From Candidatus Wolframiiraptor gerlachensis (lineage in GTDB: Archaea; Thermoproteota; Nitrososphaeria_A; Caldarchaeales; Wolframiiraptoraceae), in contig JAJPCT020000023.1 of the NCBI GenBank assembly GCA_021323375.2, forward strand, positions 35,803-99,802: DNA of 64,000 nucleotides, given 5' to 3'. Below, piece by piece: positions 7,947 through 38,268 of this stretch (position 1 is its first letter; each line of letters opens with the position of its first letter). The translations under genes and the position numbers were made by a program. The notes below the pieces were generated by a model. It saw only the letters and a program-made list of their open reading frames with translations. It was not told where the DNA came from and did no database searches.

Positions 7947-10499
7947 CTATTGAGCCTCCATCCTCGCAGAGGCTCTGACCCTTTTAATGATTATTCTCAG
8001 GATTACCGGTATTGCTATCACGGCTGCCAGCGCTGACACGAGTATTATGAAATCTTGGAATGAGAGTATGAGGCCGAGGAGGTTTAAGGCCTCAAGCTCT
8101 ATTATAGCGGTCTCTCCTGGGCGGATGATCCTGCTCATCTTTAGCGGGCCATGCCAGACCTCCAGCTGATACACGCCAAGATATGGTATCCCTGAGAATA
8201 CTACAACTCCATCAGGGCCCGATCTCCCCTCACCTAGGATGATGCCTGAGACCTGTAGCCTTGCGGATACTCCGGGGAGCGGGTTCCCGAGCATGTCAAC
8301 CACCTTAATAGCAATCCCCGTCAGCCTAGCCTCAATCTCGATGGGCTCTCCGGCGAATGTAACATTCCCGGAGAATATTGGGATCGTTGCTCCAGGATAG
8401 TATATCTTCAGGCTATAGTTCGCGAAAGGCATTAGGCTGAAGACTATCATGCCCTGCTTATTCGTGAGGCCCTCAGCCTTCAGGCCGGCGGGGCCCATTA
8501 ACACGACCCTAGCATTGGAGACTGGCGCGCCGCCGCTCCAGAATATTCTAAGCACCATATCTTTCACCGGCAGCTCGATCACATTAATGCCCGCAAGCTC
8601 CTCGATGCTCGTATTCAATGAGCGGAGCGGCAGGTTCCGCTCATCCAAGATCACGAGGCTGCATGAGCCGCGTGGAACAAGCTCTATGGCAATCGAATCG
8701 GATTGCCGCCTCACCTCATGCTTATGGCCGGATGGGTCTATGAGGATCCAGAATGCAGAGAATGGCCGCCCATCAGCTGTCTTGAGCTCAATCCTGATAT
8801 TATACACGTCAGCCGTTATGTTCCAAGATCCGGAGCCTGAGACGACTATCCGGTTATCATACACCTCGATACCCTTCCACATTATCTTGACGCGATACTC
8901 TCCTTCTGGGATGCCTGGGAAACTCACATATCCCCAGCGATCAGCCCTAGCCTCAATGCCGCCAAGCATCACCGAGGCGTTGCCGAGCTCAATACCATCC
9001 CTTGAGCATATATGAAGTGTTATCGAGTGCAGGGGTAGCTGGAGCTCCGAGAGCCTCCCCGGCTGGAAGACCCCTGAAGCCTCGGCGCATGTCCTGAATA
9101 CAGGGGAGCAGTTTAACGCATGCACATGATAATAGCCCACTACTACCTGGGTTATGTTCAGAAGACCTGAGCTTGAGTACAGCCTCGTCTCGGGCAGCGC
9201 TCCCCGGGGGTCGAGCACCGTGAAGTTCACGGCTAGTGGTGATCCACCACTATCAACAGCCTGAACAAGCAGATCATCAACCGGGAGAATCAGCTTGAGC
9301 TTGGGCTCCTTGATCTCCGGCGAGATCGTCGGGTGATATCCAATCCAAACACATTCATCTAGAAGCTTTACACCCATCCAGTATGCTTGTAGGGAGTGGT
9401 TTCCATTCGGGACTAGCTGATATAATGTTAAGCCGTTCTCGGTAATCACCTCAACCCCATCCAAGACTATCCTCGCGCCATTCAGCGGCCTCTCCCTCAA
9501 ATCAAGCACCCTAACCTCTACGTTGAAGAGAAGCGTTCTAACACCCTTTGATGCGAGATCATAAGCCGTATGATGGCCTATGTGCACAAGCGGCGACTCC
9601 TGCAAGAAGAGGCTGCTATTCCAGTATACTCTCACCTCATAATCATCCTCCTTAAGCCTGTAGATTCTTATCGTTCCATTATCTGGGGTGATATACTCCC
9701 TGACATCATAATAGTGCATGAGCCTCCTAATCACGACCCTGGCGCCAGAGATCGGGTTTAAGCCATCATAGTCCGTTACCGTGAGGTTAAAGCTCCTATA
9801 GGGCTGGATCTCGAAGGGCCCATGAGTTGGGTAAGCCTCGAGGGTGTAATCTATCCACCCGGGATAATGGACCCTCAGATCCATGACCGGCTTGAGAAGC
9901 CGCTCTTCCGGGTATATGTCCGGTGGAATGAATATGTTGAACTCGAGCACTATGGATGATCCGGGGCTACGTCCGTTAAGTATGTAATCTATGGGGTTGA
10001 AGGCCTTAAGCTCAACATTAGCATCAGCCCTAAATGCCCAATCCCTCCCAGGATACTTCTTCCAAGGGAACCAGAGTAAGACATGATAGAGCTTTATGGA
10101 CTTTCCTTGGCAAGCTTCTTTTATCGTCAGCTTCGCATCAAAGTACACCTGGCCTCCAAAGCCATAAGCATTCTCTATCTTGTAATCATAATCCTTTATC
10201 CAGCCGCTTTCGTTCATCTCCTGAGCCCTCTTCAGGATAAGCTCGAGATACTGCTCAGGGATTCCTTTAAACTCTTTTTCGAAGGGTTTATCCGAGGGCT
10301 GCCTTGAGGAGCAATCCATATTCGTTATGTTTGCTTTCAGCTTCCCCCACTCGCCCATGTACAATTCTGCTGGAATGAGCTCGATTGAGAAGTCCCATGT
10401 TGGCTGCGCGTTTGACGGTGTTATAGCTAGCTGGAGCGCGGAGAGGAGGGAGGATGATACTAGGAGACAGAGGAGGATCATGGAAATGCTGGGGCGCAT
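7947..10499 (-). CDS. Large cell-surface protein with repeated carboxypeptidase-regulatory-like (prealbumin-fold) domains
   Basis: Signal peptide, repeated V.D..G.P...A.V......G units, C-terminal TM anchor followed by basic residues. Confidence 0.75.
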   Translation of the reverse strand: MRPSISMILLCLLVSSSLLSALQLAITPSNAQPTWDFSIELIPAELYMGEWGKLKANITNMDCSSRQPSDKPFEKEFKGIPEQYLELILKRAQEMNESGWIKDYDYKIENAYGFGGQVYFDAKLTIKEACQGKSIKLYHVLLWFPWKKYPGRDWAFRADANVELKAFNPIDYILNGRSPGSSIVLEFNIFIPPDIYPEERLLKPVMDLRVHYPGWIDYTLEAYPTHGPFEIQPYRSFNLTVTDYDGLNPISGARVVIRRLMHYYDVREYITPDNGTIRIYRLKEDDYEVRVYWNSSLFLQESPLVHIGHHTAYDLASKGVRTLLFNVEVRVLDLRERPLNGARIVLDGVEVITENGLTLYQLVPNGNHSLQAYWMGVKLLDECVWIGYHPTISPEIKEPKLKLILPVDDLLVQAVDSGGSPLAVNFTVLDPRGALPETRLYSSSGLLNITQVVVGYYHVHALNCSPVFRTCAEASGVFQPGRLSELQLPLHSITLHICSRDGIELGNASVMLGGIEARADRWGYVSFPGIPEGEYRVKIMWKGIEVYDNRIVVSGSGSWNITADVYNIRIELKTADGRPFSAFWILIDPSGHKHEVRRQSDSIAIELVPRGSCSLVILDERNLPLRSLNTSIEELAGINVIELPVKDMVLRIFWSGGAPVSNARVVLMGPAGLKAEGLTNKQGMIVFSLMPFANYSLKIYYPGATIPIFSGNVTFAGEPIEIEARLTGIAIKVVDMLGNPLPGVSARLQVSGIILGEGRSGPDGVVVFSGIPYLGVYQLEVWHGPLKMSRIIRPGETAIIELEALNLLGLILSFQDFIILVSALAAVIAIPVILRIIIKRVRASARMEAQ

Positions 10500-10554
10500 G
10501 GCCTTCTAACATGAATATAGCGGCTAGAGATAAGCTTAGCAGTCCGGGATTTCT

Positions 10555-10572
10555 CGAGCAAATTTTATATAT
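10555..10572 (+). promoter_or_regulatory. BRE/TATA promoter of the aro leader and operon
   Basis: CGAGCAAA-TTTTATATAT at 10555-10572; predicted TSS about 10594, followed by SD-like AGGGG (10602-10606) and ATG at 10613. Confidence 0.65.
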
Positions 10573-10612
10573 AATCTGCGAGATGATTATCCAAGCGCTC
10601 CAGGGGCGAATA

Positions 10613-10705
10613 ATGATGAACCATGCTGGACATGCTTGCTTGAGCCATTTCAACAGCCTCTGGAGCTACTGGTATTTTGGCTTCTATTATTTTGCCCTGG
10701 CGTAA
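10613..10705 (+). CDS. Putative aro leader peptide MMNHAGHACLSHFNSLWSYWYFGFYYFALA (Trp/Tyr/Phe-rich)
   Basis: 30 codons; 9 of 11 consecutive codons (10661-10693) are W/Y/F; SD-like AGGGG upstream; directly 5' of the shikimate operon. Confidence 0.7.
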   Translation: MMNHAGHACLSHFNSLWSYWYFGFYYFALA

Positions 10706-10839
10706 GGCCAGGGCCCCGTGCATGATTCCTTGGTTCTGGAGGTGTTCTGCATGCCTGGGGTCCACTCTGTAGATCTTCCGGAGTATTGGTTTGGGCTTGA
10801 CGCGCCCATAGTTTACATTCTATGGTTTTTGGGAGGTGA
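10694..10839 (+). promoter_or_regulatory. Attenuator-like set of alternative hairpins ending in hairpin + U5 + SD
   Basis: GCCCTGGC/GCCAGGGC (10694-10714), GGGCCCCGTGCATG/CATGCCTGGGGTCC (10711-10763), ACTCTG/CGGAGT (10764-10784), TGGGC/GCCCA (10792-10808), CCATAG/CTATGG (10806-10825) then TTTTT and GGAGGTGA. Confidence 0.6.
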
Positions 10840-10844
10840 TGGGT

Positions 10845-11639
10845 ATGGTTTGGGGGAAGAGGGTTAGATTAAGTAGGATAATGGAGTCGGGCAAGATGGT
10901 TTGTGTGCCGATGGATCATGGAGTCAGTTCTGGGCCATTGAAGGGCATCGATAGGATAAGGGAGATGATAAGGATGCTGGAGTCTGCTGGTGTTACCGCC
11001 ATACTGATCCATAAGGGGATTATCAAGAGCTTGGATGAGCCCCCGAGGACGGGCTTGATAATGCATGCCTCTGCTAGCACGAGCCTCTCCACCTCGCCGA
11101 ACTGGAAGGTGAGAGTCGCATCCGTCGAGGAGGCCATCAGACTTGGGGCCGACGCCGTCTCAGTCCACGTAAACATCGGGAATAGGGATGAGCAGGATAT
11201 GCTGAGAAAGCTCGGCGCGATCGCTGATGAGTGCGATGCATGGGGAGTCCCATTGATAGCGATGATGTATCCGCGTGGTGAGAATATCAAGGATCCAAAT
11301 GACCCGCAGGTGATAGCTCATATTGCGAGGGTTGGCGCGGAGCTCGGTGCTGACATAGTCAAGGTGCCGATGCCATCCTTCAACCCAGATGATATTCGGG
11401 TGATAACCGAGAGCTGCCCGGTCCCGGTTGTCGCAGCTGGAGGCCCGAAGATGGATGATGACAGAAAGGTTCTGGAGCTCGCGAAGGCCGTCGTGGATGC
11501 TGGTGGAGCCGGCGTCACATTCGGGAGAAACGTCTTCCAGCATGAGAGACCGGATGCTATCGCCAGAGCGCTTAGGGCCGTCGTGATCGAAGGCAAGAGC
11601 GTCGAGGATGCCATGATGATTCTGAGGGAGCGGCGATGA
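10845..11639 (+). CDS. aroA': 2-amino-3,7-dideoxy-D-threo-hept-6-ulosonate (ADH) synthase, class I aldolase fold
   Basis: PMDHG, GADAVSVHVN, MMYPRG, ELGADIVK, GRNVFQ; first gene of the aro operon; SD GGAGGTGA favours the ATG at 10845. Confidence 0.88.
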   Translation: MVWGKRVRLSRIMESGKMVCVPMDHGVSSGPLKGIDRIREMIRMLESAGVTAILIHKGIIKSLDEPPRTGLIMHASASTSLSTSPNWKVRVASVEEAIRLGADAVSVHVNIGNRDEQDMLRKLGAIADECDAWGVPLIAMMYPRGENIKDPNDPQVIAHIARVGAELGADIVKVPMPSFNPDDIRVITESCPVPVVAAGGPKMDDDRKVLELAKAVVDAGGAGVTFGRNVFQHERPDAIARALRAVVIEGKSVEDAMMILRERR

Positions 11640-12670
11640 GAAAGGAGATAATCATCGCGCTATCCAAGCCTGATGAGAGGATCCTCGAGAGAGCGGTTGC
11701 AAGAGGCATCAAGGCGGTCTACATCGATCCTGAAAAGATTCCTCAGAGGTTTCGCGGCAAGGTCGAGGTCTATCATGAGTCCGAGTCAGCTGACTGGAGG
11801 GTTGTCAGGGACTTGTCAAGCATCTCGGAAAATGTTGTTCCCGAGATAGTGCTTAGGGGTCCTGAGGATTATGAGAGGATAATTGCGGCGGCGAGAATGG
11901 GCGCCAAGAGCATTATAGTAAGGGCTGAGGATCTGAGGATAATAGCGCTTGAGAATCTAATAGCTGACTTGGCGCCGCTGGGGACGAGGATTATCGCGGC
12001 CGCGTCGCCGCTTGAGATCGAGACGCTCTCCGGAGTTCTCGAGAAGGGTGTTGATGGCATCATAGTCTCCGTTAACAGTCCGGACGAGGTTGATCTTGTG
12101 GTGGATCAGGTCTTAGCCCCCAGCAGGCTTGAGCTGGGCGAGGCGGAGGTCGTCGAGGTCAGGGATGTTGGGCTGGGCGAGAGGGCATGCATAGATACCA
12201 CGTCAATCCTCAGCGCTGGTGAGGGCATGCTTGTCGGGAGCACGTCAAGCCTGCTAGCCCTCATACATAATGAGAGCCCAGGATCCGCGCTCACGGCTCC
12301 GAGGCCCTTCAGGGTTAATGCTGGTGCGATTCACTCGTATACGCTGGCGCCCGATGGCTCCACCAAGTATCTCTCGGAGCTGAGGGCTGGCGATAGGGTT
12401 CTCATAGTCTCCAAGAGGGGTGCTAGGGTCGTGTCTATCGGAAGGGTGAAGATCGAGCGGAGGCCGCTGCGGCTCATCAGGATCGGGATGGGAGATATTG
12501 AGGGTTCCGTGATAATCCAGAACGCTGAGACGATAATGCTCCTCGCGCCCGATGAGGCGCTTATACCCGCGACCGAGATCAAGCCGGGTGACAGGATCCT
12601 CGCGCATACACCGAAGGTCAAGGCGAGACACTTTGGGAGAGCTGTGGACGAGTTCATAATCGAGAGGTGA
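11636..12670 (+). CDS. aroB': 3-dehydroquinate synthase II
   Basis: GERACIDT, GEGMLVGS, RPFRVNAGAIHSY, KIERRPL, QNAETI, ARHFG. Confidence 0.95.
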   Translation: MRKEIIIALSKPDERILERAVARGIKAVYIDPEKIPQRFRGKVEVYHESESADWRVVRDLSSISENVVPEIVLRGPEDYERIIAAARMGAKSIIVRAEDLRIIALENLIADLAPLGTRIIAAASPLEIETLSGVLEKGVDGIIVSVNSPDEVDLVVDQVLAPSRLELGEAEVVEVRDVGLGERACIDTTSILSAGEGMLVGSTSSLLALIHNESPGSALTAPRPFRVNAGAIHSYTLAPDGSTKYLSELRAGDRVLIVSKRGARVVSIGRVKIERRPLRLIRIGMGDIEGSVIIQNAETIMLLAPDEALIPATEIKPGDRILAHTPKVKARHFGRAVDEFIIER

Positions 12671-12674
12671 TCAA

Positions 12675-13361
12675 ATGTCAAGGCCATTGATATGCGTCAG
12701 CATCATGGGTAGGGATGAAGCTGAGCTTGAGAGGAAGGTGGAGCGGGCGCTGAGCCTCGGCGGAGACCTTGTTGAGCTCAGGCTAGACTTTCTCCTTGAG
12801 CTCGATGTAGGCCGCCTAGGAAACATTATCTCGAGCCTCGCTGACAAGGTCATCATAACGCTTAGGCCGAGCTGGGAGGGGGGCCACTATAGTGGAGGCG
12901 AGGAGGAGAGGATCGAGCTATTGAGAATGTTATCCGACCTGAAGCCCGCCTACATGGATCTCGAGCTCGCGGCAAGGAACCTCGCTGAAATCTCCAGAGA
13001 GCTTAGGAGAAAGTCGCGTCTCATAATATCTTTTCATGATTTCTCTGGAACGCCCCCTGACGAAGAGCTGGCATCACGAGCCCAGGAGGCCCTAAGATAT
13101 GGTGACATCGCGAAGATCGTGACTCTCTCAAGGGGAATGGATGATAATCTAGGGATTCTGCGGCTTTACCGGCTGGATGGTATATCGGTTGAGAGGCTGA
13201 TAGCATTCGCCATGGGTGAGGCTGGTGTGGTGACGAGGATCCTAGCGCCCATCCTAGGGTCGCCGATAGCCTATTCATGTCTCCCAGGTGAAGAGGTTAC
13301 TCCAGGCCAGCTGAACATAATCCATCTTAGGAGGATCTTGGAGTTGGTGATGCCGCGTTGA
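12675..13361 (+). CDS. aroD: Type I 3-dehydroquinate dehydratase
   Basis: VELRLD, TLR...EGG, SFHDF..TP, FAMGE.G..TR, PGQ. Confidence 0.93.
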   Translation: MSRPLICVSIMGRDEAELERKVERALSLGGDLVELRLDFLLELDVGRLGNIISSLADKVIITLRPSWEGGHYSGGEEERIELLRMLSDLKPAYMDLELAARNLAEISRELRRKSRLIISFHDFSGTPPDEELASRAQEALRYGDIAKIVTLSRGMDDNLGILRLYRLDGISVERLIAFAMGEAGVVTRILAPILGSPIAYSCLPGEEVTPGQLNIIHLRRILELVMPR

Positions 13362-14221
13362 TTAATGCCTCGACAAGGCTCTGCTGTCTTATAGGGCATC
13401 CGATCGGCCACTCTGTCTCACCCCAGATGCATAATGCCGCCTTCAGGGCTCTTGGGCTAAACTACGTCTACCTCGCGTTCGATGTCTCGCCGAAGATGCT
13501 GGCTGATGCCGTGGCAGGGTTAAGGGCTCTCGGCGTTGCCGGCTTCAACGTGACGATACCCCATAAGGTTGCGGTGATGAGGCTACTCGACGAGCTCGAT
13601 CGCTCGGCGGAGAGGACGGGCGCGGTTAACACTGTAGTGAATCATCATGGAGTCTTAAGGGGCTATAATACTGATCTTCATGGTATTCGGAGGGCGCTGG
13701 AGGGTCGGGGCCCCCCCATCTTGATGCCGGCCCTCGTGATTGGCGCTGGAGGCGCTGCAAGAGCCGCGGTGGTCGCCCTTATAGATCTCGGCTTCCGGAG
13801 AATCCTCATCGCTAATAGGACTATTGAGAAGAGCTTGGCTCTAGCTGAGATTGCACGCTCCCTTGGAGCCTTAGTGGAGGTCTTGGATCTCGATGAAGGT
13901 AGGCGGAGGGCCGTTGAATGCGGGGTTGTGGTGAATGCGACCCCTGTTGGCATGTATCCGGATACTAGCGCCACTCTGCTCATGGCCGAGGAGATGCGGA
14001 GAGGCATGATAGTCCTCGACCTCGTGTATAATCCTCCTAAAACCCGGCTCTTGAAGGAGGCGAAGAGAGCTGGAGCGGTGCCTGTCTCCGGCCTCGATGT
14101 CCTAGTTTATCAGGGGGCTGAGGCTTTCAAGCTCTGGACCGGCGTGGACCCGCCGATCGAGATTATGAGAAGGGCTGCGATCGAGGCGCTGGAGGGGGAT
14201 CGGGGGGATGAGGGGCGCTAG
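13358..14221 (+). CDS. aroE: Shikimate dehydrogenase
   Basis: HSVSPQMHN, NVTIPHK, GAVNT, GYNTD, GAGGAARA, NATPVG, DLVY.P. Confidence 0.95.
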   Translation: MINASTRLCCLIGHPIGHSVSPQMHNAAFRALGLNYVYLAFDVSPKMLADAVAGLRALGVAGFNVTIPHKVAVMRLLDELDRSAERTGAVNTVVNHHGVLRGYNTDLHGIRRALEGRGPPILMPALVIGAGGAARAAVVALIDLGFRRILIANRTIEKSLALAEIARSLGALVEVLDLDEGRRRAVECGVVVNATPVGMYPDTSATLLMAEEMRRGMIVLDLVYNPPKTRLLKEAKRAGAVPVSGLDVLVYQGAEAFKLWTGVDPPIEIMRRAAIEALEGDRGDEGR

Positions 14222-15071
14222 GGCAGTGGTTCATGGCGCGGTGAGCATCCTAAACGCCATACCAACATGGATTGGAGGGGCTTTAGGAGTGGATCTTTGG
14301 ACCGAGGCGGAGGCCTGGATTAGTGATGATCCTGGGAGGATTGAGGCGGAGATACCGGGTGGGGAGGATCCAAGCCTCGTGATCGAGACCGCGAGGACCG
14401 TCCTTCAGCGGGCTAGAAGAGTTGATCTCGGCCTCCGGCTGAGAACTAGGTCGAATATCCCTATGGGGAGGGGGCTTAAGAGCTCGAGCGCCGCCTCAGA
14501 TGCCGTGGCCCTAGCAGTCGCGAGGCTCGTTGGCCTTGAATGCGATGGAGATGAGGTGGTGAGGCTCGCTGTCGAGGCCTCGATCAGGGCGGGCGTTACG
14601 ATCACTGGAGCATACGACGACGCCTACACATGCTATTATGGTGGGATAAATATCACGGATAACAAGTCGAGGAAGGTACTATTGAGGAGGATGGCGCCGG
14701 AGGACGTGGTCGTGGTAATATCCGTGCCCGAGAAGAAGATCTATACAAGGTCTGTGGATGTTGGGAGGCTTAGTGCCTTTAGGGAGGTTTGCCTTAAGGC
14801 GGCGAGGCTCGCGCTCCAGGAAAAATTCTGGGACGCGATGATCTTGAATGGACTGGCGATCGCCTCGGCCCTGGACCTAGATCCATCACCCATCCTCGAC
14901 GCGCTTAGGGCTGGGGCCATAGCCGCTGGGGTTTCCGGAACCGGGCCCGCAATAGCAGCAATCACCTCGCCCAAGAGGGTTGATGATGTTCGAGAGGCCT
15001 TAAGGGATTATGGGGATCTTCTCATATGCGGGGTGAATAATTTCGAGGCTAGCTGGGAGGTGTTTGGATGA
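14208..15071 (+). CDS. aroK: Archaeal (GHMP-family) shikimate kinase
   Basis: GAVSILNAI, IPMGRGLKSSSA, TITGAYDD, GVSGTGP. Confidence 0.94.
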   Translation: MRGARAVVHGAVSILNAIPTWIGGALGVDLWTEAEAWISDDPGRIEAEIPGGEDPSLVIETARTVLQRARRVDLGLRLRTRSNIPMGRGLKSSSAASDAVALAVARLVGLECDGDEVVRLAVEASIRAGVTITGAYDDAYTCYYGGINITDNKSRKVLLRRMAPEDVVVVISVPEKKIYTRSVDVGRLSAFREVCLKAARLALQEKFWDAMILNGLAIASALDLDPSPILDALRAGAIAAGVSGTGPAIAAITSPKRVDDVREALRDYGDLLICGVNNFEASWEVFG

Positions 15072-16363
15072 GCAAGATGATACTCGTGAAGCCGTCGGTG
15101 CTTAGGGGCGTGGCTGAGGCTCCTCCGAGCAAGTCCTATACGCATCGGGCTTACGCGGCTGCCCTCCTCTCCGATGGTGTCAGCAAGATCATCAGCCCCC
15201 TCAAATCCCGGGATACAGATGCGACTAGGAGAGCTTGCATTCACTTGGGCGCGGAGATCAAGGAGGAAGAGAACAATGTCCTAGTTAGGGGTGGAGAATT
15301 TAGGACTCCCGATAATGTTATTGATGTTGAGAATTCCGGGACCACTCTCAGGTTCTTCACGGCGATCTCGGCTCATGCTCCCGGCGGCTACGTGATCTTG
15401 ACTGGGGATGACTCGATTAGGAGGAGGCCTATGGAGCCTCTCTTAAAGGCTCTTAGGATGCTTGGTGTCGAGTGCTGGTCGAGCAAGCTGGATGGAACGG
15501 CGCCGATAATAGTTAGGGGCGGTGGGATAGAGGGAGGCGAGGCCAGAATAGAGGGCTGGATCTCATCCCAGTTCATCTCAGCCCTAATCTATGCGTCGAC
15601 TAGGTCTAGGGGGGGTGCGAGGATAATTGTCGAGGGCGAGATGGTCTCGCGACCATATATCGACGCGAGCCTAGCTGTTCTCGCGAGATTCGGGTTCCGC
15701 GTGGAGCGCGAGGGATACTGCTTCTTCGAGGTTGAGGGCGGGCAGCATGGGGTGACATGCGAGTTCATGGTTCCGGGGGACTTTGGCTCAGCCGCCTTCC
15801 TAACGGCGGGAGCATGCCTGACAGGTGGAGACGTGATCGTGAGAAACCTGAGCTTGGATCTTCCGCAGGCCGACGCCGCGATAATCAACTTCCTGAGGAT
15901 GCTTGGATGCCACGTGGAGATAATGGAGAATGCTGTCAGGGTTTATCGCGCTGGGAGAGCATGTGGAGGAGAATTTGATCTAAGAGACTCGCCGGACCTC
16001 CTCCCGATACTCGCCTGCATCGCTGCCAAGTGCTCAGAGGAAGTGGTCTTGAGAGGTGTCGCTCATGCGAGGTTCAAGGAGAGTGATAGGATCATAGTCA
16101 TGGCGCATGAGCTCGCCAAGCTTGGCATCTATGTCGAGCCCCTCCCAGATGGCTTGAGAATACGCGGGAGGGATAGTATCGAGGGAGGATGCGTGCTGGA
16201 TCCCCATGGTGATCATCGGGTATTCATGGCTCTCGCGATGCTCGCGGCTTCTACCGAGAGGGGGTGCCTCGTGAAGGATCCGGAGGTTGCTGAGGTCTCG
16301 TATCCCCAGTTCCTCGAGCACGCGATCGGCCTAGGATTGAATGTGGAGGTACTTGAAGGATGA
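15068..16363 (+). CDS. aroA: EPSP synthase
   Basis: PPSKSYTHR, NSGTTLRF, SSQFISAL, KESDRI, DHR, SYP. Confidence 0.96.
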   Translation: MSKMILVKPSVLRGVAEAPPSKSYTHRAYAAALLSDGVSKIISPLKSRDTDATRRACIHLGAEIKEEENNVLVRGGEFRTPDNVIDVENSGTTLRFFTAISAHAPGGYVILTGDDSIRRRPMEPLLKALRMLGVECWSSKLDGTAPIIVRGGGIEGGEARIEGWISSQFISALIYASTRSRGGARIIVEGEMVSRPYIDASLAVLARFGFRVEREGYCFFEVEGGQHGVTCEFMVPGDFGSAAFLTAGACLTGGDVIVRNLSLDLPQADAAIINFLRMLGCHVEIMENAVRVYRAGRACGGEFDLRDSPDLLPILACIAAKCSEEVVLRGVAHARFKESDRIIVMAHELAKLGIYVEPLPDGLRIRGRDSIEGGCVLDPHGDHRVFMALAMLAASTERGCLVKDPEVAEVSYPQFLEHAIGLGLNVEVLEG

Positions 16364-17466
16364 GGGGCAATATTATCGGCGAGAGGTTCATAGTCCTGAG
16401 CTTCGGCGAGAGCCATGGAAGATGTGTTGGAGCCGTTGTTGATGGTTGCCCCGCCGGCCTATCCCTCCGGGAGGAGGATGTTCAACGTGAGCTGGATTTG
16501 AGGAGGCCCTCGAGTCCGCTTATCTCGACCGAGAGAAGCGAGGAGGATGTTGTCGAAATACTTTCAGGAGTCTTCGAGGGGTATACGACTGGCGCGCCGA
16601 TATGCATGCTTACCTGGAATAGAGATGTTAGGAGCGAGGACTACGCGGAGATCAGGTATAAACCTAGGCCGGGCCACGCCGACTATTATGCCCATGTCAA
16701 GTATGGGGGCTTCCATGATTATCGCGGCGGCGGCAGGTTCTCGGGAAGGATAACCGCCGGATTCGTAATGGCTGGAGCCGTCGCGAAGAAGCTCCTGAGA
16801 GATGTCCTAGGCATCAGGATCATCGGATACTCGCTTGAGATCGGTGGTGTGAGGGCTGGCGAGTTCACCTTGGAGGATGCTGAGAGGAACAGGTATGGAA
16901 ATGATGTTAGGGCGCCGACCCTGGAGGCTGCTGAGAGGATGAGGGAGAGGATTCTGGAGGCAAGGGAGAGGGGGGATAGCGTCGGCGGGATAGTGGAGTG
17001 CGTAGCTGTGAATGTTCCCATAGGGTTGGGTGAGCCGGTATTTGATGCCTTGGATGCCGATCTCGCGAAGGCCATGATGGCGATTCCCGGGGCGAGGGGG
17101 GTTGAGTTTGGGGCCGGGTTCGCCGCTGCCAGAATGACTGGCTCACAGCACAACGATCCATTAATCGTGAGGAATGGCAGGATAATCTCTGAGAAGAATG
17201 ATGCTGGAGGAGTGATCGGGGGCCTCTCGACGGGCATGCCGATAATCGTCAGGGTTGCTTTCAAGCCGACGAGCTCCATACCCTTGGAGCAGAAGACTGT
17301 TGATCTTAGGGATCTCAGCGAGGCGGGGCTGAGGATGCGCGGCAGGCATGATCCATGCATCGTCCCAAGGGCAGTGGTGGTCGTCGAGGCGATGATGGCG
17401 ATAGTGCTCGCCGATCACGCAATTAGAGCCGGATTCATACCACCAGTCCTCAGGCGTGGGGATTAA
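16360..17466 (+). CDS. aroC: Chorismate synthase
   Basis: FGESHG, RPGHAD, GGGRFSGR, KPTSSI, GRHDPCI. Confidence 0.97.
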   Translation: MRGNIIGERFIVLSFGESHGRCVGAVVDGCPAGLSLREEDVQRELDLRRPSSPLISTERSEEDVVEILSGVFEGYTTGAPICMLTWNRDVRSEDYAEIRYKPRPGHADYYAHVKYGGFHDYRGGGRFSGRITAGFVMAGAVAKKLLRDVLGIRIIGYSLEIGGVRAGEFTLEDAERNRYGNDVRAPTLEAAERMRERILEARERGDSVGGIVECVAVNVPIGLGEPVFDALDADLAKAMMAIPGARGVEFGAGFAAARMTGSQHNDPLIVRNGRIISEKNDAGGVIGGLSTGMPIIVRVAFKPTSSIPLEQKTVDLRDLSEAGLRMRGRHDPCIVPRAVVVVEAMMAIVLADHAIRAGFIPPVLRRGD

Positions 17467-31853: not shown

Positions 31854-32660
31854 CTATTGGCCAAGATCGCTCAGTGCATCCACGAACCCCTTTACGAGCC
31901 TCTCAACAGCCTTCTCAGGGCTCATTAGGCTCCTTTTTATCTCGGAAATGATCCTGCTCCCAGCTATAATGCCGTTGGCGCCAAGCTTAGCGAGCTCAAC
32001 CGCTTGATCCGGCCTTGAGACGCCGAAGCCCACCGCCACCGGCTTCTCAGGGTTTAGGCTCTTGCTCCTCCGGAGTAGCTGGATCGCTGTCGGTGGAAGG
32101 GACTCTCTCTCGCCCGTCGTCCCGGTGAGGGATACGAGGTATGCAAATCCCATAGTCTCGTCTAGGATTCTCGCGAGCCTCTCATCACTCGTCGTCGGCG
32201 CTGCTAAGAGCACCAGCGAGATGCCATGCTCCATGGCGACCCTCTTCACGGGGCCAGCCTCCTCGAGGGGTAGATCCGGTATAATTACTCCGCCGACTCC
32301 ATGTCTTGAGGCCTCCTCCATAAACCTCCTCAAGCCCATCCGATAGACGGGATTCAGATACGTCAAGATCACGATCGAGACATCATATCCCGATGAGACT
32401 TCCTTGGCAAGTTCTAGGACCTTCCGTGGGGTTGCCCCTGCCTGAAGAGCCTTGTAGGTCGCATCCTGTATCGTGACTCCATCCGCTATCGGGTCAGAGA
32501 ACGGTATTCCCAGCTCAATTATCTCCGCCCCGGCCTCTACCATCGCTTCAAGTATCCTTCTACACGTCTTCATGTCAGGGTATCCGCCTGTGATATATGG
32601 TATGAAGAGTGATCGGCCTATTCTCCTCGCTCGCCTAAACCTTTCCTCAATCCAATTCAT
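31854..32660 (-). CDS. trpA: Tryptophan synthase alpha chain
   Basis: [36 protein letters not shown]. Confidence 0.96.
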
Positions 32661-33847
32661 CTCCCAAGCCTCCTTAGGACTGTCTCGAGATCCTTGTCCC
32701 CCCTGCCCGAGAGATTCACAACTATTATCTCATCTCTCCCGATGTTCTCGGCGAGCTTCATCGCATACGCTAGTGCGTGGGCGGACTCGAGTGCTGGCAG
32801 AATCCCCTCAGTCCTCGATAATGCTAGGAATGCTTGGAGAGCCTCCTCATCAGTTACCGTGAAGTATTGGGCTCTCCCAATCTCCTTGAGGTAGGCGTGC
32901 TCCGGCCCGACCGCGGGGTAGTCTAGGCCGGCTGCTATGCTGTGTGTTCCAGCTATCTGCCCATCCTCATCCTGCAAGACATACGTTAGTGCGCCATGTA
33001 GAACCCCCTCGATACCTCTTACAAGCGATGCTGAGTGTTTTCCAAGATCCTCGCCCTCTCCGCCGGCCTCGACGCCGATCAGCTTGACCTCGCGATCCTC
33101 GATGAATGGGTGGAATATTCCTATCGCGTTGCTCCCACCGCCGACGCATGCTACGATGTAGTCTGGAAGCCTCCCCTCCTTCTCGAGAATCTGCCTCCTC
33201 GTCTCCACTCCTATAACAGACTGGAAATCCCGGACGATCATGGGATATGGATGTGGGCCGACACATGATCCAAGCAGATAATACGTCGTCTCGACATTCG
33301 TCACCCAGTCCCTTATCGCCTCGTTTATTGCGTCCTTTAGAGTCTTCGATCCGGATGAGACGGGGTGGACCTCGGCGCCGAGAAGCCTCATCCTCTGCAC
33401 GTTCATCTTCTGTCTCTCCATGTCTATCTCGCCCATGTAAATCTCGCATCTCAGGCCGAGGACTGCGCAAGCCATAGCGGTCGCGACACCATGCTGCCCG
33501 GCCCCAGTCTCAGCTATCACCCTACTCTTCCCCATCCGCTTGGCAAGCAGCCCCTGGCCCAGCGTGTTGTTTATCTTGTGAGCGCCCCCATGGAGCAGGT
33601 CCTCGCGCTTGAGATAGATCTTCGCCCCGCCCACCATCTTCGTGAGGTTCTCAGCATAGTAGAGCGGCGTCGGCCTGCCAGCATACTCCCTGAGCAGGTA
33701 GTCTAGCTCACGCCTGAAATCTAGGTCATCCCTCAGCCTGAGATAGCTCTCCTCGAGGTCGCTTAGCGCCTCCATCAGCGTCTCGGGGACATATCGCCCG
33801 CCGAACCTGCCAAACCTTCCACCACTCGTCGGAAAATTATATCTCAT
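32657..33847 (-). CDS. trpB: Tryptophan synthase beta chain (TrpB1)
   Basis: [47 protein letters not shown]; start MRYNF at 33847. Confidence 0.97.
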
Positions 33848-34451
33848 TAAGCTCCACCTCCCTAACCCTCCTAACAAACTCTCTTATCATGTGCGCGTCC
33901 TTTATCCCGGGAGATGACTCGACCCCGCTTGAGACATCAACACCATATGGCCTGACTATCCGGATCGCGTCCCGGATGTTCGATGGGCTGAGGCCTCCAG
34001 CCAGTATAACGGGAAGCCGAGACATTTCCCGGATCCTCCTGCATATATTCCAGTCGGGCTTCAAACCCCTCCCCATACTGCTGTCGAGAAGTATCGCGTC
34101 GAAGCCATCACAGTCTGGCGCCGCGTCAATATTTGCCTGAATGGGCTTGATAATCCACTTGGCTCCAAGCTCTCTTAGCTGATCCGGGTCAATATCACCA
34201 TATGCTTGGACGGCGTCGGGCCTTATCTCGCGGATAGCCCTAGTTAGCATATCGCGATCGCCTCCATCAACTACTAGGACTACATCGAGGAATGGCGGCG
34301 CCATCATCCTGAGAGTTTTCGCCCTCTCGATCGTGAGGTTTCTCGGTGATCTTGGGAAGCCCACTACTAGGCCCACCGCGTCGGCGCCATTTATGGCGGC
34401 TGCCATCAAATCCGCCTCACGCGTTATCCCACAGATCTTCACCCTAACCAT
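33837..34451 (-). CDS. trpF: Phosphoribosylanthranilate isomerase
   Basis: VKICGIT, LAGGL, DVSSGVE. Confidence 0.95.
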
Positions 34452-35229
34452 CGCCCAGAGCCCCCTTAAGCTCTCTTATCTTCGACGCGATGCTCCCAGA
34501 CCGCATGATAGAGGTGCCAACCAAGAACTTGCTCACGCCGAGCTCCGCGAATCTTCTCACATCGGATGCCGAGGTTATTCCACTCTCGAGAATTATCCGC
34601 TCACAATCGCCGCCATATGTCGCGATGATCTCATAAGCGCGGTCGAGGCTGAGGTCGAGTGTGTCGAGGTTCCTAGAATTCACCCCAAGGAAGTCCGCAT
34701 CATAATGGAGCGATGCTTTGAAGTCCTCTATCGTATAGGATTCGAGCAGGACCTCGAGCCCCATGCCGTGGGCGAGCTCTATCGCATCCCTCAGCTCGAG
34801 CTCCGTGTAGCCCCTCGAGAAGGCCGGGAATATTAGGAGTATTGCTGATGCGCCCGCCCTATGGGCGGCCTCTATCTGGACCTCAGAAACTATGAAGTCC
34901 TTCATCAGGATTGGGAGGCTTGTGATCTCTGAGGCCTCCGCGAGATATCCTATTGACCCGGAGAAGTTGTCGGGATCCGTTAGGATCGAGAGAGCATCAG
35001 CCCCAGCATTCCCCATCTCCATTACGAGGCTTACTGGATCCTGCTCCTCCCTAATCCAGCCCATGGATGGTGATCGGAGCTTCAGCTCGCATATCAGCGA
35101 GATCCCCGGCTTATCCAAGGCCTTAAGCATGCTCGGCCTCCTCACCGCCGCCCTGCATTCATCCAAGCTATAATACCCCTCTGCAACCCTTCTCCTCGCC
35201 TGGGCACATGCCTTCTCGAGAAAGCTCAT
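34444..35229 (-). CDS. trpC: Indole-3-glycerol phosphate synthase
   Basis: ELKLRSPS.G, SILTD..F.GS, PILMKDFI, GVNSRNL, ESGI. Confidence 0.93.
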   Translation of the reverse strand: MSFLEKACAQARRRVAEGYYSLDECRAAVRRPSMLKALDKPGISLICELKLRSPSMGWIREEQDPVSLVMEMGNAGADALSILTDPDNFSGSIGYLAEASEITSLPILMKDFIVSEVQIEAAHRAGASAILLIFPAFSRGYTELELRDAIELAHGMGLEVLLESYTIEDFKASLHYDADFLGVNSRNLDTLDLSLDRAYEIIATYGGDCERIILESGITSASDVRRFAELGVSKFLVGTSIMRSGSIASKIRELKGALGDG

Positions 35230-36293
35230 TCCACCACCCTCATCCATGACTCAAATCTATCTTGATCGCCGCCGGTCTCCTTCACGAGCCTCCTCAGCAG
35301 CTCGATCGGCTTCCCCGATTCTATCACGCGCCAAGCCATCTCCGCACCACCAGCCGGGTCATCAGCCAATCCGCCGACCATTAATGATAGCGATGAGTTC
35401 GCGAGGAGGAGCCTCGTTAATGGATGCCTTTTTCCGAGAGCCCCCGCCAAGGCCTCCAAGGTTCTTCTGATGCACTCATCCCTGCTTCCCACGATTACCT
35501 CTTCAACTCTTGCCTTCTCGAGCCTGAAGCTCTCAGGGCTGAGTATCACCCGCCTAGCCTCCCCATCCTTGATCCAGATCACCATAGTCTCGGAGAATAT
35601 TGATGCCTCATCTATCCCGCCATCCCCATGGATTATCGCGGCCTCCTCTCTTCCAAGTATTCTGACCGCCTCAGCCACGCGCTCTATGAACTCGCGGGAG
35701 AAGACCCCGAGAACCTGAGCATTTATTGGGGCCGGGTTTGTTAGGGGGCCCAGCAAGTTAAAGACCGTCCTTATGCCGATCTCCCTCCTCACGGGCATGA
35801 CATTCTTCATGGATTGATGATATCTCGGCGCGTAGATGAATCCAAAGCCCAGCGACTCGATGCACCTTGAAACCATGTCCGGCTCCAAGTCTATCCTCAC
35901 GCCGACCTCCTCAAGGAAGTCCGCGCTACCACAGTAGCCCGTGAATGATCTATTGCCGTGTTTTGCGACCCGGCATCCAGCCGCAGCGGCTACAAGCCCG
36001 GACGCCGTGCTGACGTTAATAGTCTTGACCAAGTCGCCTCCAGTCCCACACGTGTCTATCAGCCTTCCCCTCATGCGGCTTACCCGTATCGGCGTCGCAA
36101 ACCTTCTCATGATCTCTGACATGGCGGCTATTATTGCTGGATTTTCTCCCCGTATACGGAGGGCGGTGAGGAAGGCGGCGGCCTGAGCATGCGTCGCCTC
36201 ACCCCTCATCAGCTCCTCCATACATCTCGCCGCGAGTTCCGGCTCTATGCTCCCGCGCTCCACAAGCAGCCTTATCGCCTCAACTATGCTCAT
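35226..36293 (-). CDS. trpD: Anthranilate phosphoribosyltransferase
   Basis: DTCGTGGD, NVST, KHGNRS, RTVFNLLGPL.NP, DE. Confidence 0.96.
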   Translation of the reverse strand: MSIVEAIRLLVERGSIEPELAARCMEELMRGEATHAQAAAFLTALRIRGENPAIIAAMSEIMRRFATPIRVSRMRGRLIDTCGTGGDLVKTINVSTASGLVAAAAGCRVAKHGNRSFTGYCGSADFLEEVGVRIDLEPDMVSRCIESLGFGFIYAPRYHQSMKNVMPVRREIGIRTVFNLLGPLTNPAPINAQVLGVFSREFIERVAEAVRILGREEAAIIHGDGGIDEASIFSETMVIWIKDGEARRVILSPESFRLEKARVEEVIVGSRDECIRRTLEALAGALGKRHPLTRLLLANSSLSLMVGGLADDPAGGAEMAWRVIESGKPIELLRRLVKETGGDQDRFESWMRVVE

Positions 36294-36874
36294 ATCATTC
36301 CCTCCAAGAAGTTCCTGAGAATCTTGATCCCGCTAGTGGTTAGGATGGATTCGGGGTGGAACTGCACGCCCGCGATCGGCAGACTTCTATGCCTAACCCC
36401 CATGATCTCGCCATCATCGAGCGATCTCGCGGATATTTCGAGGCAGCCTGGCAGGCTCTCCTCATCGGCGACGAGCGAGTGATATCTCCCGGCCACGAAC
36501 GGGTTCTCGAGCCCCTCGAATATCCCCCTCCCATCATGGCTTATGGGGCTTGGCTTGCCATGCACGATCCTCCTCGCCCTAATCACCCTACCGCCAAACG
36601 CGTGGACTATCAGCTGATGGCCCAAGCATACCCCCAATATCGGCGTATCCCGCGAAAATCTCATTATAACATCCTCGCAGACCCCAGTATACTTTTTCTC
36701 TGATGGATGGCCGGGGCCCGGCGAGATTATGATCCTATCAGGATCAATCTCCTCAACCTCATTCAAGGTGATCCTTTTACTTCGCGCGACTATCGCCTCA
36801 GCTCCTAGCCTGCCAACATAGTCGGCGAGATTATAGACGAATGAGTCGAAATTGTCTAAGATTAGGACGCGCAT
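36290..36874 (-). CDS. trpG: Anthranilate synthase component II
   Basis: DNFDSFVYNL, SPGPG, GVCLGHQ, RYHSL, GVQFHPES. Confidence 0.96.
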   Translation of the reverse strand: MRVLILDNFDSFVYNLADYVGRLGAEAIVARSKRITLNEVEEIDPDRIIISPGPGHPSEKKYTGVCEDVIMRFSRDTPILGVCLGHQLIVHAFGGRVIRARRIVHGKPSPISHDGRGIFEGLENPFVAGRYHSLVADEESLPGCLEISARSLDDGEIMGVRHRSLPIAGVQFHPESILTTSGIKILRNFLEGMI

Positions 36875-38268
36875 CTCTCACCAGCCTCCTCTAATGCCCT
36901 CATAAGCGCCATCATCTTATGCTTGGTCTCCTTCCACTCCCGCTCCGGGATTGAGTCCCAGACGATGCCTGCGCCCGCCTGGATATAGGCTAGGCGCGAT
37001 CTCCTGATCAGAGTCCTTATTGTGATCGCAAAGTCACAGCAGCTATTCAGCGAGAAGTATCCAATCGCCCCTGCATATGGGCCTCTCCTGACGGGCTCGA
37101 GCTCCTCTATTACCTCCATCGCCCTAGGCTTTGGCGCCCCCGAGACTGTTCCAGCCGGGAAGACGGCCTTGAAGGCATCATACATCGTGGCTCCACCTCT
37201 CAGCCTTGCCTTAACCCTTGAGACGATGTGCTTAACGTGGCTATACTTGACTAGGGTCATGAAGTCCTTCACCTCGACTGATCCGGGCTCCGCGATCTTA
37301 GCGAGATCATTCCTAGCGAGATCGACGAGCATAACATGTTCCGCCCTCTCCTTCTCATCGGAGAGAAGCTCGTGGTCGGATTCCTCCTCCAACCTCGGAT
37401 CATTCATCCTCGGCCTAGTCCCGGCTATTGGGAACGTCTCAACCCTGACGCCCTCAACCCTAACCAGCATCTCGGGGCTCGCTCCAACAATCTCATCATC
37501 CCCGAGCCTGAAATAATACATGTAAGGTGATGGATTAAGATCGCGAAGCCTGAGATAGAATGGGAGCAGGTCGCCCTTGATCTCGAACTCGAGCCTCCGT
37601 GAGAGAACTACTTGGAAAATGTCGCCGCGCTCGATATACTTCTTTCCAGCCTCCACGATGCCCATGAACTCGTCCATGCTCATATTGCTCCTCGGGCTGG
37701 TGTATCTGAGACGATGATTGGCGGATGGTGGCCCAGCATCTTTTAGAACCCTCTTGACATTATCCAGCCTGCCATCTCCAGCGCATGAGCAGTAATAATA
37801 CGTCCTCCTCCCATGATCATAGATCAGCACATCCTCGAATAAGCCGAACTTCATGAGCGGGAAGATATTGCTTGGCTTCTCGCGCGATCGGATATCCTCC
37901 CAGAGGAATGAGGCCTCATACGAGACATAGCCTACAAGGCCACCGACAAAGCGGGGCGAGGAAGGGGCGCCCGCGATCGGCCGGGTTAGGCTTCTCAGCA
38001 GATCTAGTGGATCACCCTCTACTTCGCTAACAGAACCATGCTCATGAATTCTCGAGAACCCCTCATAACACTCGATGATGAGCTTGGGGTCGAAGCCGAT
38101 GAAGCTGTATTCAGCGAGCCTCTTGGGGCCTGTTAGAGATTCCAAGAGAAAGGCATCCCGCCAAGCAGCCCTTATGGCCCCGAAAACCTGGAGGGGGGTA
38201 AGCCCAAGATCAAGCCTTATAAGCCTAAGCCGTCTCTCAGCATGATATTCAGAGCCAAAGATAGCCAC
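36862..38268 (-). CDS. trpE: Anthranilate synthase component I (N-terminus possibly supplied by +1 frameshift from the uORF at 38275)
   Basis: FLLES, GDIFQVVLS, NPSPY, PIAGTR, KERAEH.MLVDLARND, FPAGTVSGAPK, QAGAGIV. Confidence 0.96.
   Translation of the reverse strand: MAIFGSEYHAERRLRLIRLDLGLTPLQVFGAIRAAWRDAFLLESLTGPKRLAEYSFIGFDPKLIIECYEGFSRIHEHGSVSEVEGDPLDLLRSLTRPIAGAPSSPRFVGGLVGYVSYEASFLWEDIRSREKPSNIFPLMKFGLFEDVLIYDHGRRTYYYCSCAGDGRLDNVKRVLKDAGPPSANHRLRYTSPRSNMSMDEFMGIVEAGKKYIERGDIFQVVLSRRLEFEIKGDLLPFYLRLRDLNPSPYMYYFRLGDDEIVGASPEMLVRVEGVRVETFPIAGTRPRMNDPRLEEESDHELLSDEKERAEHVMLVDLARNDLAKIAEPGSVEVKDFMTLVKYSHVKHIVSRVKARLRGGATMYDAFKAVFPAGTVSGAPKPRAMEVIEELEPVRRGPYAGAIGYFSLNSCCDFAITIRTLIRRSRLAYIQAGAGIVWDSIPEREWKETKHKMMALMRALEEAGERCAS

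Follow-up and report, generated by a model that had tools for sequence, protein, structure and literature searches.

A conserved aromatic-codon leader at the head of the archaeal shikimate operon in Caldarchaeales: a candidate ribosome-mediated amino-acid sensor

Sensing of charged tRNA by leader peptides is a textbook bacterial mechanism and needs translation to start on the nascent transcript. Examples from Escherichia coli are trpL, pheL and hisL and the multivalent thrL and ilvL. The subject of this study is a small open reading frame (ORF) with a run of phenylalanine, tyrosine and tryptophan codons, which lies at the head of the shikimate (chorismate) operon in a 64,000-nucleotide stretch of the genome of the archaeon Candidatus Wolframiiraptor gerlachensis (contig JAJPCT020000023.1; hereafter the window). 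An earlier note on this DNA had proposed that the ORF is a multivalent sensor of aromatic amino acids acting by ribosome-mediated attenuation. No archaeal leader-peptide attenuator was found in the full-text literature, subscription journals and supplements lying outside the coverage of that search. Functional evidence for the coupling of transcription and translation in archaea is still called scarce in the accessible part of one report (PMC13681488).

The locus resembles the bacterial attenuators in its short 5′ ORF rich in codons for the end products, in its multivalence (Phe, Tyr and Trp codons occur together) and in the placing of these "hungry" codons where a stalled ribosome would cover an arm of a hairpin; one of its two helices takes in the early leader. 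It differs from them in most of what surrounds the ORF. The mutually exclusive terminator and antiterminator helices of the bacterial systems were not found in the 22 sequences compared here, which belong to another domain, the Archaea. Nor is there an intrinsic terminator, as the distal hairpin (P2) is followed by a spacer of 20–28 nucleotides and not directly by a U run. The leader stop codon lies in the loop of that hairpin, so that a terminating ribosome would melt it, while the proximal helix (P1) sequesters the ribosome-binding site of the leader itself and a second ORF bridges the distance to the first enzyme gene.

A hungry-codon sensor with translational output has been described in mycobacteria, in the form of a leaderless poly-Cys ORF (10.1101/834739). 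In the accessible part of that report, the leader and its 3′ region form an unusually stable duplex, there is no classical terminator, and the sensing codons lie at the 3′ end of the ORF. The mycobacterial Cys tract pairs directly with the downstream Shine–Dalgarno (SD) sequence, whereas no consistent pairing of this kind was found here for the aromatic tract or for P2. The organism, the sensed amino acids and the sequences, as given there, are unrelated to those of the present leader.

The erm and cat attenuators, TnaC and the fungal arginine attenuator peptide (AAP), as generally understood, resemble the locus in another way: a parked leader ribosome remodels a hairpin beside the next initiation region, and the C-terminal residues and the position of the stop are conserved. 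Unlike the leader described here, they respond by way of the nascent chain to a drug or to a metabolite in free form and are not enriched in cognate codons, and the hairpin of erm and cat contains the downstream SD, which is not so here. TrpY of Methanothermobacter regulates the same pathways, but it is a DNA-binding repressor, and the pattern of G–U pairs in the present leader does not indicate a DNA site.

A conserved reading frame and two RNA helices

The leader ORF (protein P0001; 10613..10705, plus strand) runs from an ATG at 10613 through 30 sense codons to a TAA at 10703–10705, and nine of the eleven codons 17–27 (10661..10693) are aromatic, just as the earlier note had read them. The assembly of this genome comprises 1,277,965 bases in 27 contigs, and 59,148 stop-to-stop frames of at least 11 codons were counted over all six frames of its whole length. 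The nine-in-eleven run is unique among them; no frame has eight aromatic codons in eleven, and 22 have seven. Because it is the sole case of its kind genome-wide, the aromatic stretch is not a chance product of a T-rich spacer. The reading frame is already open from 10454, yet conservation begins only at the ATG, which is preceded at 6–10 nucleotides by an SD-like purine run. The 3′ end of the 16S rRNA was not found in the assembly, and the anti-SD sequence is therefore assumed rather than read.

Upstream of the ORF, a TATA-like box preceded by a B-recognition-element-like run of A (10563..10573, plus strand) forms a conserved block in 9/9 sequences of the genus. By the archaeal rule that the centre of the TATA box lies about 26 nucleotides upstream of the transcription start, the leader transcript is predicted to begin near 10593–10595. 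The distance from the TATA-like box to helix P1 is 22–25 nucleotides and is kept across three genera. A sigma-70 promoter scan of the window was set aside as irrelevant to archaea.

A covariance model of helices P1 and P2, termed R1, was used to scan 76 genomes of the order, and 22 distinct leaders were recovered. The leader frame is open in all 22, while the other two frames are open over the same span in 3/22 and 7/22. The start codon, a few bases 3′ of the SD-like purines, is ATG in 21 leaders and TTG in one. All 22 encode 23–32 codons with 8–11 aromatic residues, so that the aromatic run, which was looked for in the orthologous leaders as the earlier note had suggested, is present in every family member found. 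Of the 586 codons in the leader frame, 201 (34%) are aromatic; the shares in the other two frames are 7% and 12%. The aromatic codons of the leader are concentrated in the linker between P1 and P2 (116 of 140 codons; shuffled sequences give 48 ± 4 and 0 of 2000 reach 116), whereas the N-terminal half is polar and variable and has 10 aromatic codons in 182. Insertions and deletions between P1 and P2 comprise whole codons and give at least five lengths. Phe, Tyr and Trp codons are frequently interchanged between leaders and often differ synonymously. Among them, conservation is highest for the Tyr-Phe pair next to P2, which is identical in 21/22 leaders with almost no synonymous change. The stop codon lies within the P2 loop in 22/22, as TAA in 15, TAG in four and TGA in three.

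Comparison across the relatives thus shows that the leader frame, its start codon, its aromatic make-up and the position of its stop are under selection, and it supports the view that the ORF keeps aromatic codons rather than nucleotides. On this comparative evidence, we regard ORF 10613–10705 as probably, though not securely, a translated leader peptide.

Could the peptide instead have a function of its own, for example at the membrane, and merely be co-transcribed with the operon? The hydrophobic C-terminal 14–15 residues and the polar or basic N-terminus would suit such a role. The usual membrane helix, however, has about 20 residues, and the hydrophobic part is too short for it; the N-terminal half is unconserved; and the ends of the conserved part are dictated by RNA pairing. 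When three leader peptides were searched against Pfam and NCBIfam, bacterial leader peptides included, no family was matched at E values up to 10. The earlier note had also considered a conserved small membrane protein found in unrelated contexts; the ORF is always single-copy, always at the operon head and never in another context. We consider an independent function of the peptide very unlikely.

Two helices enclose the aromatic cluster. In consensus folds of 9 and 22 sequences (RNAalifold), the first bases of the predicted transcript, which include the SD-like purines of the leader, form the 5′ arm of P1 (10597..10607, plus strand) and pair with 10656..10666, that is, with leader codons 15–18 (Leu-Trp-Ser) within the aromatic cluster. 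P2 (10694..10714, plus strand) is a hairpin with a G+C-rich stem of 8 bp; the last three sense codons form its 5′ arm, the stop stands in its loop, and the bases that follow the stop make up its 3′ arm. In the 22-sequence alignment, 97.5% of cells are paired in P1 and 99.4% in P2, with both sides changed in 3 of the 8 pairs of P2. Over the two helices together, pairing extends to 98.3% of cells, and 6 of the 19 pairs have changed on both sides; none of 500 shuffles reaches either value, and controls with the arms slid along the alignment are only 31–60% paired. Within the genus the sequences of P1 and P2 hardly vary; the loop and linker sequences differ among the 22 leaders. The stability of the leader as a whole is unexceptional (z-score −0.89; 38 of 200 shuffles are equally stable). 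Comparison shows P1 and P2 to be under selection, with P1 arranged so that it would shut the ribosome-binding site of the leader against codons of the aromatic cluster. Sequence changes in P2 also alter the peptide (Ala to Thr, Leu to Pro) with pairing kept, which indicates that the C-terminal tripeptide is conserved for pairing and not as peptide.

These pairing data also bear on whether the inverted repeats might be DNA operators for a dimeric repressor, one near the start site and one at about +100. P2 is a palindrome with a short spacer, and one relative (L003), at a contig edge, carries an extra copy of the P1 5′ arm about 80 nucleotides 5′ of its leader and upstream of the TATA box, both of which would be at home in an operator. 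Departures from Watson–Crick pairing in P1 and P2 are, however, of the G–U and not the A–C kind, with G–U frequent and internal non-pairs nearly absent, so that the helices fit plus-strand RNA rather than a DNA palindrome; asymmetries of the G–U kind are A–C mismatches on the other strand and would leave unequal half-sites in DNA. P1 was also rejected as a regulon motif: three other copies of the 11-mer occur in the genome, a number near chance, none of them before aromatic genes, and the trp operon of the window lacks it. A P1-type 11-mer near the aspartate kinase gene on contig C16 is separated from that gene by a divergent gene. We find a DNA operator scarcely credible.

A structured 5′ RNA offers a further explanation, in which P1, P2 and the single strand between them would bind a protein or metabolite, and the ORF and its U-rich "aromatic" codons would be by-products. 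The near-invariance of both helices in the genus, the identity of the Tyr-Phe codons before P2 in 21/22 leaders and the closure of the leader ribosome-binding site that P1 would bring about are all compatible with it. It does not account for a frame that is open in 22/22 against 3 and 7, with whole-codon indels and a kept start, for a stop that stays in the loop by means of three different codons, or for an aromatic enrichment confined to the leader frame and far above that of shuffles; moreover, the loop and linker vary. An Rfam scan of 10300–11000 with 4227 models and permissive filters returned two snoRNA matches only (E 5.2 and 7.5), far below their gathering scores. We judge a purely structural role improbable.

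Operon context and the second initiation region

The first enzyme gene of the operon in the window encodes 2-amino-3,7-dideoxy-D-threo-hept-6-ulosonate (ADH) synthase (10845–11639, plus strand; 10832..11639 with its SD). Its assignment is by matches to NF005556 (326 bits) and TIGR01949 (304 bits), both above the cut-offs, and the protein is 92% identical to that of W. sinensis. It opens a complete archaeal shikimate operon of the 6-deoxy-5-ketofructose 1-phosphate (DKFP) type at 10845–17466, with ADH synthase, dehydroquinate synthase II, aroD, aroE, an archaeal shikimate kinase, aroA and aroC. In 9/9 loci of the same genus that have upstream sequence, a small aromatic ORF lies 130–270 nucleotides 5′ of the ADH synthase gene. 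The alignment of these nine loci contains the conserved TATA block, a block at the expected transcript start, two invariant inverted repeats, and a second SD followed by an ATG.

This second translation initiation region (10738..10753, plus strand), with SD-like purines at 10738–10744 and an ATG at 10751, is conserved in all 22 sequences. The spacer between P2 and its ribosome-binding site (10715..10737, plus strand, in the window) is 20–28 nucleotides long in 22/22 and 23–24 in 16/22. In genera g2 and g5 the region is the start of the aspartate kinase gene. In the window it begins a 38-codon ORF, uORF2 (10751..10867, plus strand), which is a relic of the aspartate kinase start and overlaps the start of the ADH synthase gene. 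The 5′ leader, put at about 250 nucleotides in the earlier note, contains this second conserved ORF and so is not an untranslated stretch.

Among the species of the genus, the distance from the uORF2 ATG to the ADH synthase ATG takes seven lengths from 85 to 121 nucleotides and is 1 modulo 3 in 10/11. The frame is open and ends 14 or 23 nucleotides beyond the ADH synthase ATG, while the peptide is unconserved past about six residues. By comparison, then, what has been retained in uORF2 is the act of translation and not the peptide. This upkeep suggests either selection against untranslated gaps or translational coupling of the enzyme genes to uORF2. With its spacing of 20–28 nucleotides and its retention as a bridging uORF, the next initiation region is a fixed, integral part of the leader module.

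A local hairpin of six pairs followed by T5 (10806..10830, plus strand) lies inside uORF2, before the SD of the ADH synthase gene. The earlier note had placed an attenuated 3′ end at 10826–10830. The hairpin with T5 or T6 is confined to three of the 11 species in the genus, that of the window and the two nearest to it, and stands within the second ORF, 120 nucleotides past the leader stop, and it does not bear out that proposal.

Several other features of the window adjoin these elements. The 340-nucleotide intergenic region that holds the leader promoter is shared with a divergent gene for an 850-residue protein (7947–10499, minus strand; start at 10499), which contains CarboxypepD_reg and SpaA-type prealbumin-fold repeats, has no NCBIfam match and is probably a surface protein. 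The genes for prephenate dehydrogenase and for chorismate mutase/prephenate dehydratase lie on the opposite strand, convergent with the shikimate operon. A complete trp operon is found in the same window (31854–38268, minus strand), with a TATA-like box about 30 nucleotides before its first gene; a Trp-rich leader was looked for there and none was found. A scan for single-residue runs upstream of 1,281 crude genes of this genome, as a search for other cognate leaders, gave noise, and its six best hits precede unrelated genes. One 16-codon ORF (L032; G000 contig C16:84281-84331) has five consecutive Ile codons and lies about 70 nucleotides before a Glu/Leu/Phe/Val dehydrogenase gene.

Distribution and a second type of leader

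R1 found 22 of the 76 genomes to carry a full-length match on the plus strand, never more than one each, in three genera of one family: 10/13 in g1 plus the window's own genome, 3/3 in g2 and 8/8 in g5. There were no matches in g3, g4 or the other three families. Three genomes show an additional weak echo on the opposite strand at the leader position. In all 22 genomes the leader stands at the head of the aro operon. In g1 the leader and the ADH synthase gene go together: ten genomes have both, and three (completeness 76–93%) have neither.

The leader is followed by the ADH synthase gene in g1 and by the genes for aspartate kinase and aspartate-semialdehyde (ASA) dehydrogenase in g2 and g5, where both of the latter genes intervene and the match lies about 2.3 kb 5′ of the ADH synthase gene. 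Aspartate kinase and ASA dehydrogenase catalyze the two steps that yield aspartate-semialdehyde, a substrate of the DKFP-type pathway. In Wolframiiraptor they are encoded outside the aro operon. Because its position at the operon head is constant while the first genes differ, the leader tracks the operon head and not any particular gene.

A scan of the 5 kb upstream of 80 named loci revealed aromatic small ORFs directly before genes for ASA dehydrogenase or aspartate kinase. Calditenuis and its relatives have such ORFs, as does another Nitrososphaeria lineage, and Terraquivivens has a variant rich in Tyr. A second model of the Calditenuis type, R2, matches 14 of the 19 genomes of family f2 (g14 3/3, g9 6/7, g6 5/8) and 0 of the 57 others. 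These second-family leaders (L080, L082, L083, L086, L090, L077 and L144-L157) lie directly before the ASA dehydrogenase gene. Each has its own initiation region closed in a duplex of 20–27 bp, in which the partners are codons from the aromatic cluster and nucleotides 3′ of the stop; a small hairpin holds the stop codon, and some of the leaders seem to be near-leaderless. As in the first family, the aromatic cluster adjoins the hairpin with the stop, but the helices differ. A core Phe-Gly-Phe-x-x-Tyr-x-Tyr-Phe is common to both types by eye. The near-leaderless members with a 27-bp duplex closely resemble the mycobacterial poly-Cys ORF as described in the accessible part of 10.1101/834739.

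In two of the three g14 genomes examined (L149 and L152, but not clearly in L151), the region after the leader holds an ORF of 15–17 codons at about 130–183 after the R2 match, whose TGA overlaps the ATG of the dehydrogenase gene (ATGA). Judged by its arrangement, g14 repeats what is seen in Wolframiiraptor, namely an initiation region that was kept and now opens a bridging ORF. In genomes of the Caldarchaeum type there is no leader, and a TATA box precedes the dehydrogenase start by about 30 nucleotides.

The Terraquivivens variant (L091, L093 and L097, at about 2600–2740) is a small ORF before the aspartate kinase gene, with a GTG start and a stretch of six codons of which four specify Tyr. 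The ORF lies within a 9-bp helix formed by the 5′ end and its last codons, its Tyr codons lie in a palindromic hairpin, and T4–T5 runs follow. R1 has no match to it in any of the 7 genomes of g3. Four Nitrososphaeria lineages that are more distant (L084, L094, L095, L107) share a 16-nucleotide motif, which starts with the SD-like purines of the P1 arm and is found 100–250 nucleotides before the aspartate kinase start; among these, only L084 has an aromatic small ORF after the motif, with six aromatic residues in its last eight.

A possible mechanism and its significance

The finding of a conserved aromatic ORF at the operon head in 22/22 genomes, together with a related leader in a second family, supports that part of the earlier proposal in which the element is a multivalent aromatic sensor, whereas the attenuator part is left without a conserved terminator or antiterminator; classical transcriptional attenuation is not shown. 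We think it reasonably probable, on comparative grounds, that the leader is a translated, multivalent Phe/Tyr/Trp-codon sensor for the chorismate operon.

Through its Phe, Tyr and Trp codons the leader would make the operon responsive, by way of a ribosome, to how much of each of the three charged aromatic tRNAs is available. With aromatic tRNA plentiful, a single ribosome loaded before P1 closes would reach the stop and leave, P1 and P2 would fold, and expression of the operon would be low. In shortage, a ribosome parked on the aromatic codons would cover the P1 3′ arm, the P2 5′ arm or both, so that the leader would remain open and expression would be high. The closed form is taken as the low state because the best-kept hungry codons sit right beside P2. 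Output could be by control of translation at the next initiation region (10738–10753), at its fixed 20–28 nucleotides past P2, which is the least certain step, and the enzyme genes would be slaved to that region by translational coupling through uORF2. Among the outputs of such a sensor, the translational one, after the manner of the mycobacterial poly-Cys leader (10.1101/834739), is our tentative preference, put forward overall with less than even confidence; it is preferred because retention of the next initiation region, with coupling to enzyme genes, is seen twice. Some third form of output seems very doubtful.

The main alternative, though unlikely, is that the same sensor acts on transcription, so that P2 and the U-rich spacer, possibly with FttA/aCPSF1, end the transcript before 10738 when the leader is closed. 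In shortage, a ribosome parked on the Tyr-Phe codons would keep P2 open and let the polymerase pass, and translation of uORF2 would let a ribosome follow the polymerase up to the first of the enzyme genes. Archaeal termination relies on oligo-T and FttA, according to the accessible parts of two reports (PMC13681488; PMC8716108), which is in line with this output. T runs of at least four occur in the spacers of 14/22 leaders, mostly at the 3′ end, and runs of at least five in 8/22; T-rich tracts follow the Terraquivivens variant as well, and the in-frame upkeep of uORF2 without conservation of its peptide fits the avoidance of an untranslated gap. However, the longest T run in the spacer of the window is two, 8/22 spacers have no run of four or more, and the helices of the second family are not followed by a T tract. 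The runs that exist lie 15–20 nucleotides from P2, so that there is no terminator of the bacterial type, and to our knowledge hairpin-dependent termination is not established for the archaeal polymerase. Such a model alone also leaves the fixed distance of the next initiation region unexplained.

A number of observations weigh against our preferred reading of a translated sensor with translational output. The genomes are related metagenome-assembled genomes, so the counts overstate independence, and the two leader types are probably one old family and not independent inventions; in genus g6 the cluster has only 4–6 aromatic residues. The alignment of 22 sequences from which the pairing values were taken (A3) was fitted to the covariance model, which favours the pairing score, and the peptide conservation at Leu/Phe-Trp-Ser and Ala-Leu-Ala is partly explained by the helices and not by codons. 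Consensus folding of the 22 sequences shows P1 and P2 alone, with no mutually exclusive third helix. When the footprint of a ribosome standing on any one of the aromatic codons, or on the stop, was masked in equilibrium folding of 22 type-W and 6 type-C sequences at 37 or 75 °C, the unpaired probability at the next SD did not change consistently. Forcing ribosome-covered columns open yielded no alternative helix common to the three genera. An alternative helix that forms with the P2 5′ arm masked is confined to g1 and covers uORF2 codons 3–5, and on its face it would lower, not raise, initiation at uORF2. The start site, like translation and stalling, is predicted. Finally, the geometry, read in several simple ways, would switch the operon off on starvation, which is the wrong sign, and since a ribosome at the stop also melts P2, the difference between the states must be one of dwell time. 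Pairing between the 5′ arms of P1 and P2 was tried as an antiterminator and rejected, as it is broken without compensation in three sequences with a changed P2.

The question of sign is where an arrest peptide would have an advantage. In the style of TnaC or the fungal arginine attenuator peptide, the aromatic C-terminus of the nascent chain and, in the exit tunnel, a free aromatic amino acid or pathway intermediate would together stall the ribosome at or near the stop when the product is in excess, and with the ribosome parked there the next initiation region would be used less. By several readings of the structure a stall means off, the right sign for a sensor of excess, and the last residues and the exact stop position are the most conserved parts of the peptide. 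Yet the arrest peptides known to us are not enriched in the residue that they sense, the aromatic residues here interchange freely and number 8–11, and the C-terminal tripeptide co-varies with P2 pairing. We regard arrest of this kind as quite improbable.

For the sensor reading, the wider claim would be that of an old, order-wide archaeal family of hungry-codon leaders, the first case of ribosome-mediated amino-acid sensing in Archaea, built unlike the bacterial attenuators. We hold this to be a little better than an even prospect. In such a design one helix would allow the leader ribosome-binding site a single co-transcriptional chance, a second hairpin would bear the stop in its loop, and the signal would be relayed by way of an initiation region at a fixed distance downstream and of small ORFs that bridge the gap. 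The non-bacterial architecture (stop in the loop, sequestered own ribosome-binding site, bridging uORFs) makes it likely that the mechanism holds something new about how archaea initiate or terminate translation, or about polarity.

With 36 genomes from two Caldarchaeales families carrying a single-copy leader that is conserved and matched to its pathway, the question of a sensor can be tested directly. Cultures of Wolframiiraptor and Calditenuis have been reported, as stated in the accessible parts of the sources (PMC9246946; PMC12979851). Gene callers miss leader ORFs of this kind. The distribution of the leaders also flags aspartate kinase and ASA dehydrogenase as possibly co-regulated with the DKFP-type shikimate pathway. 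If the sensor reading is true, coupling of translation to transcription in the pioneer round would be used for regulation in Thermoproteota, and the leader would be a natural and portable object with which to test it.

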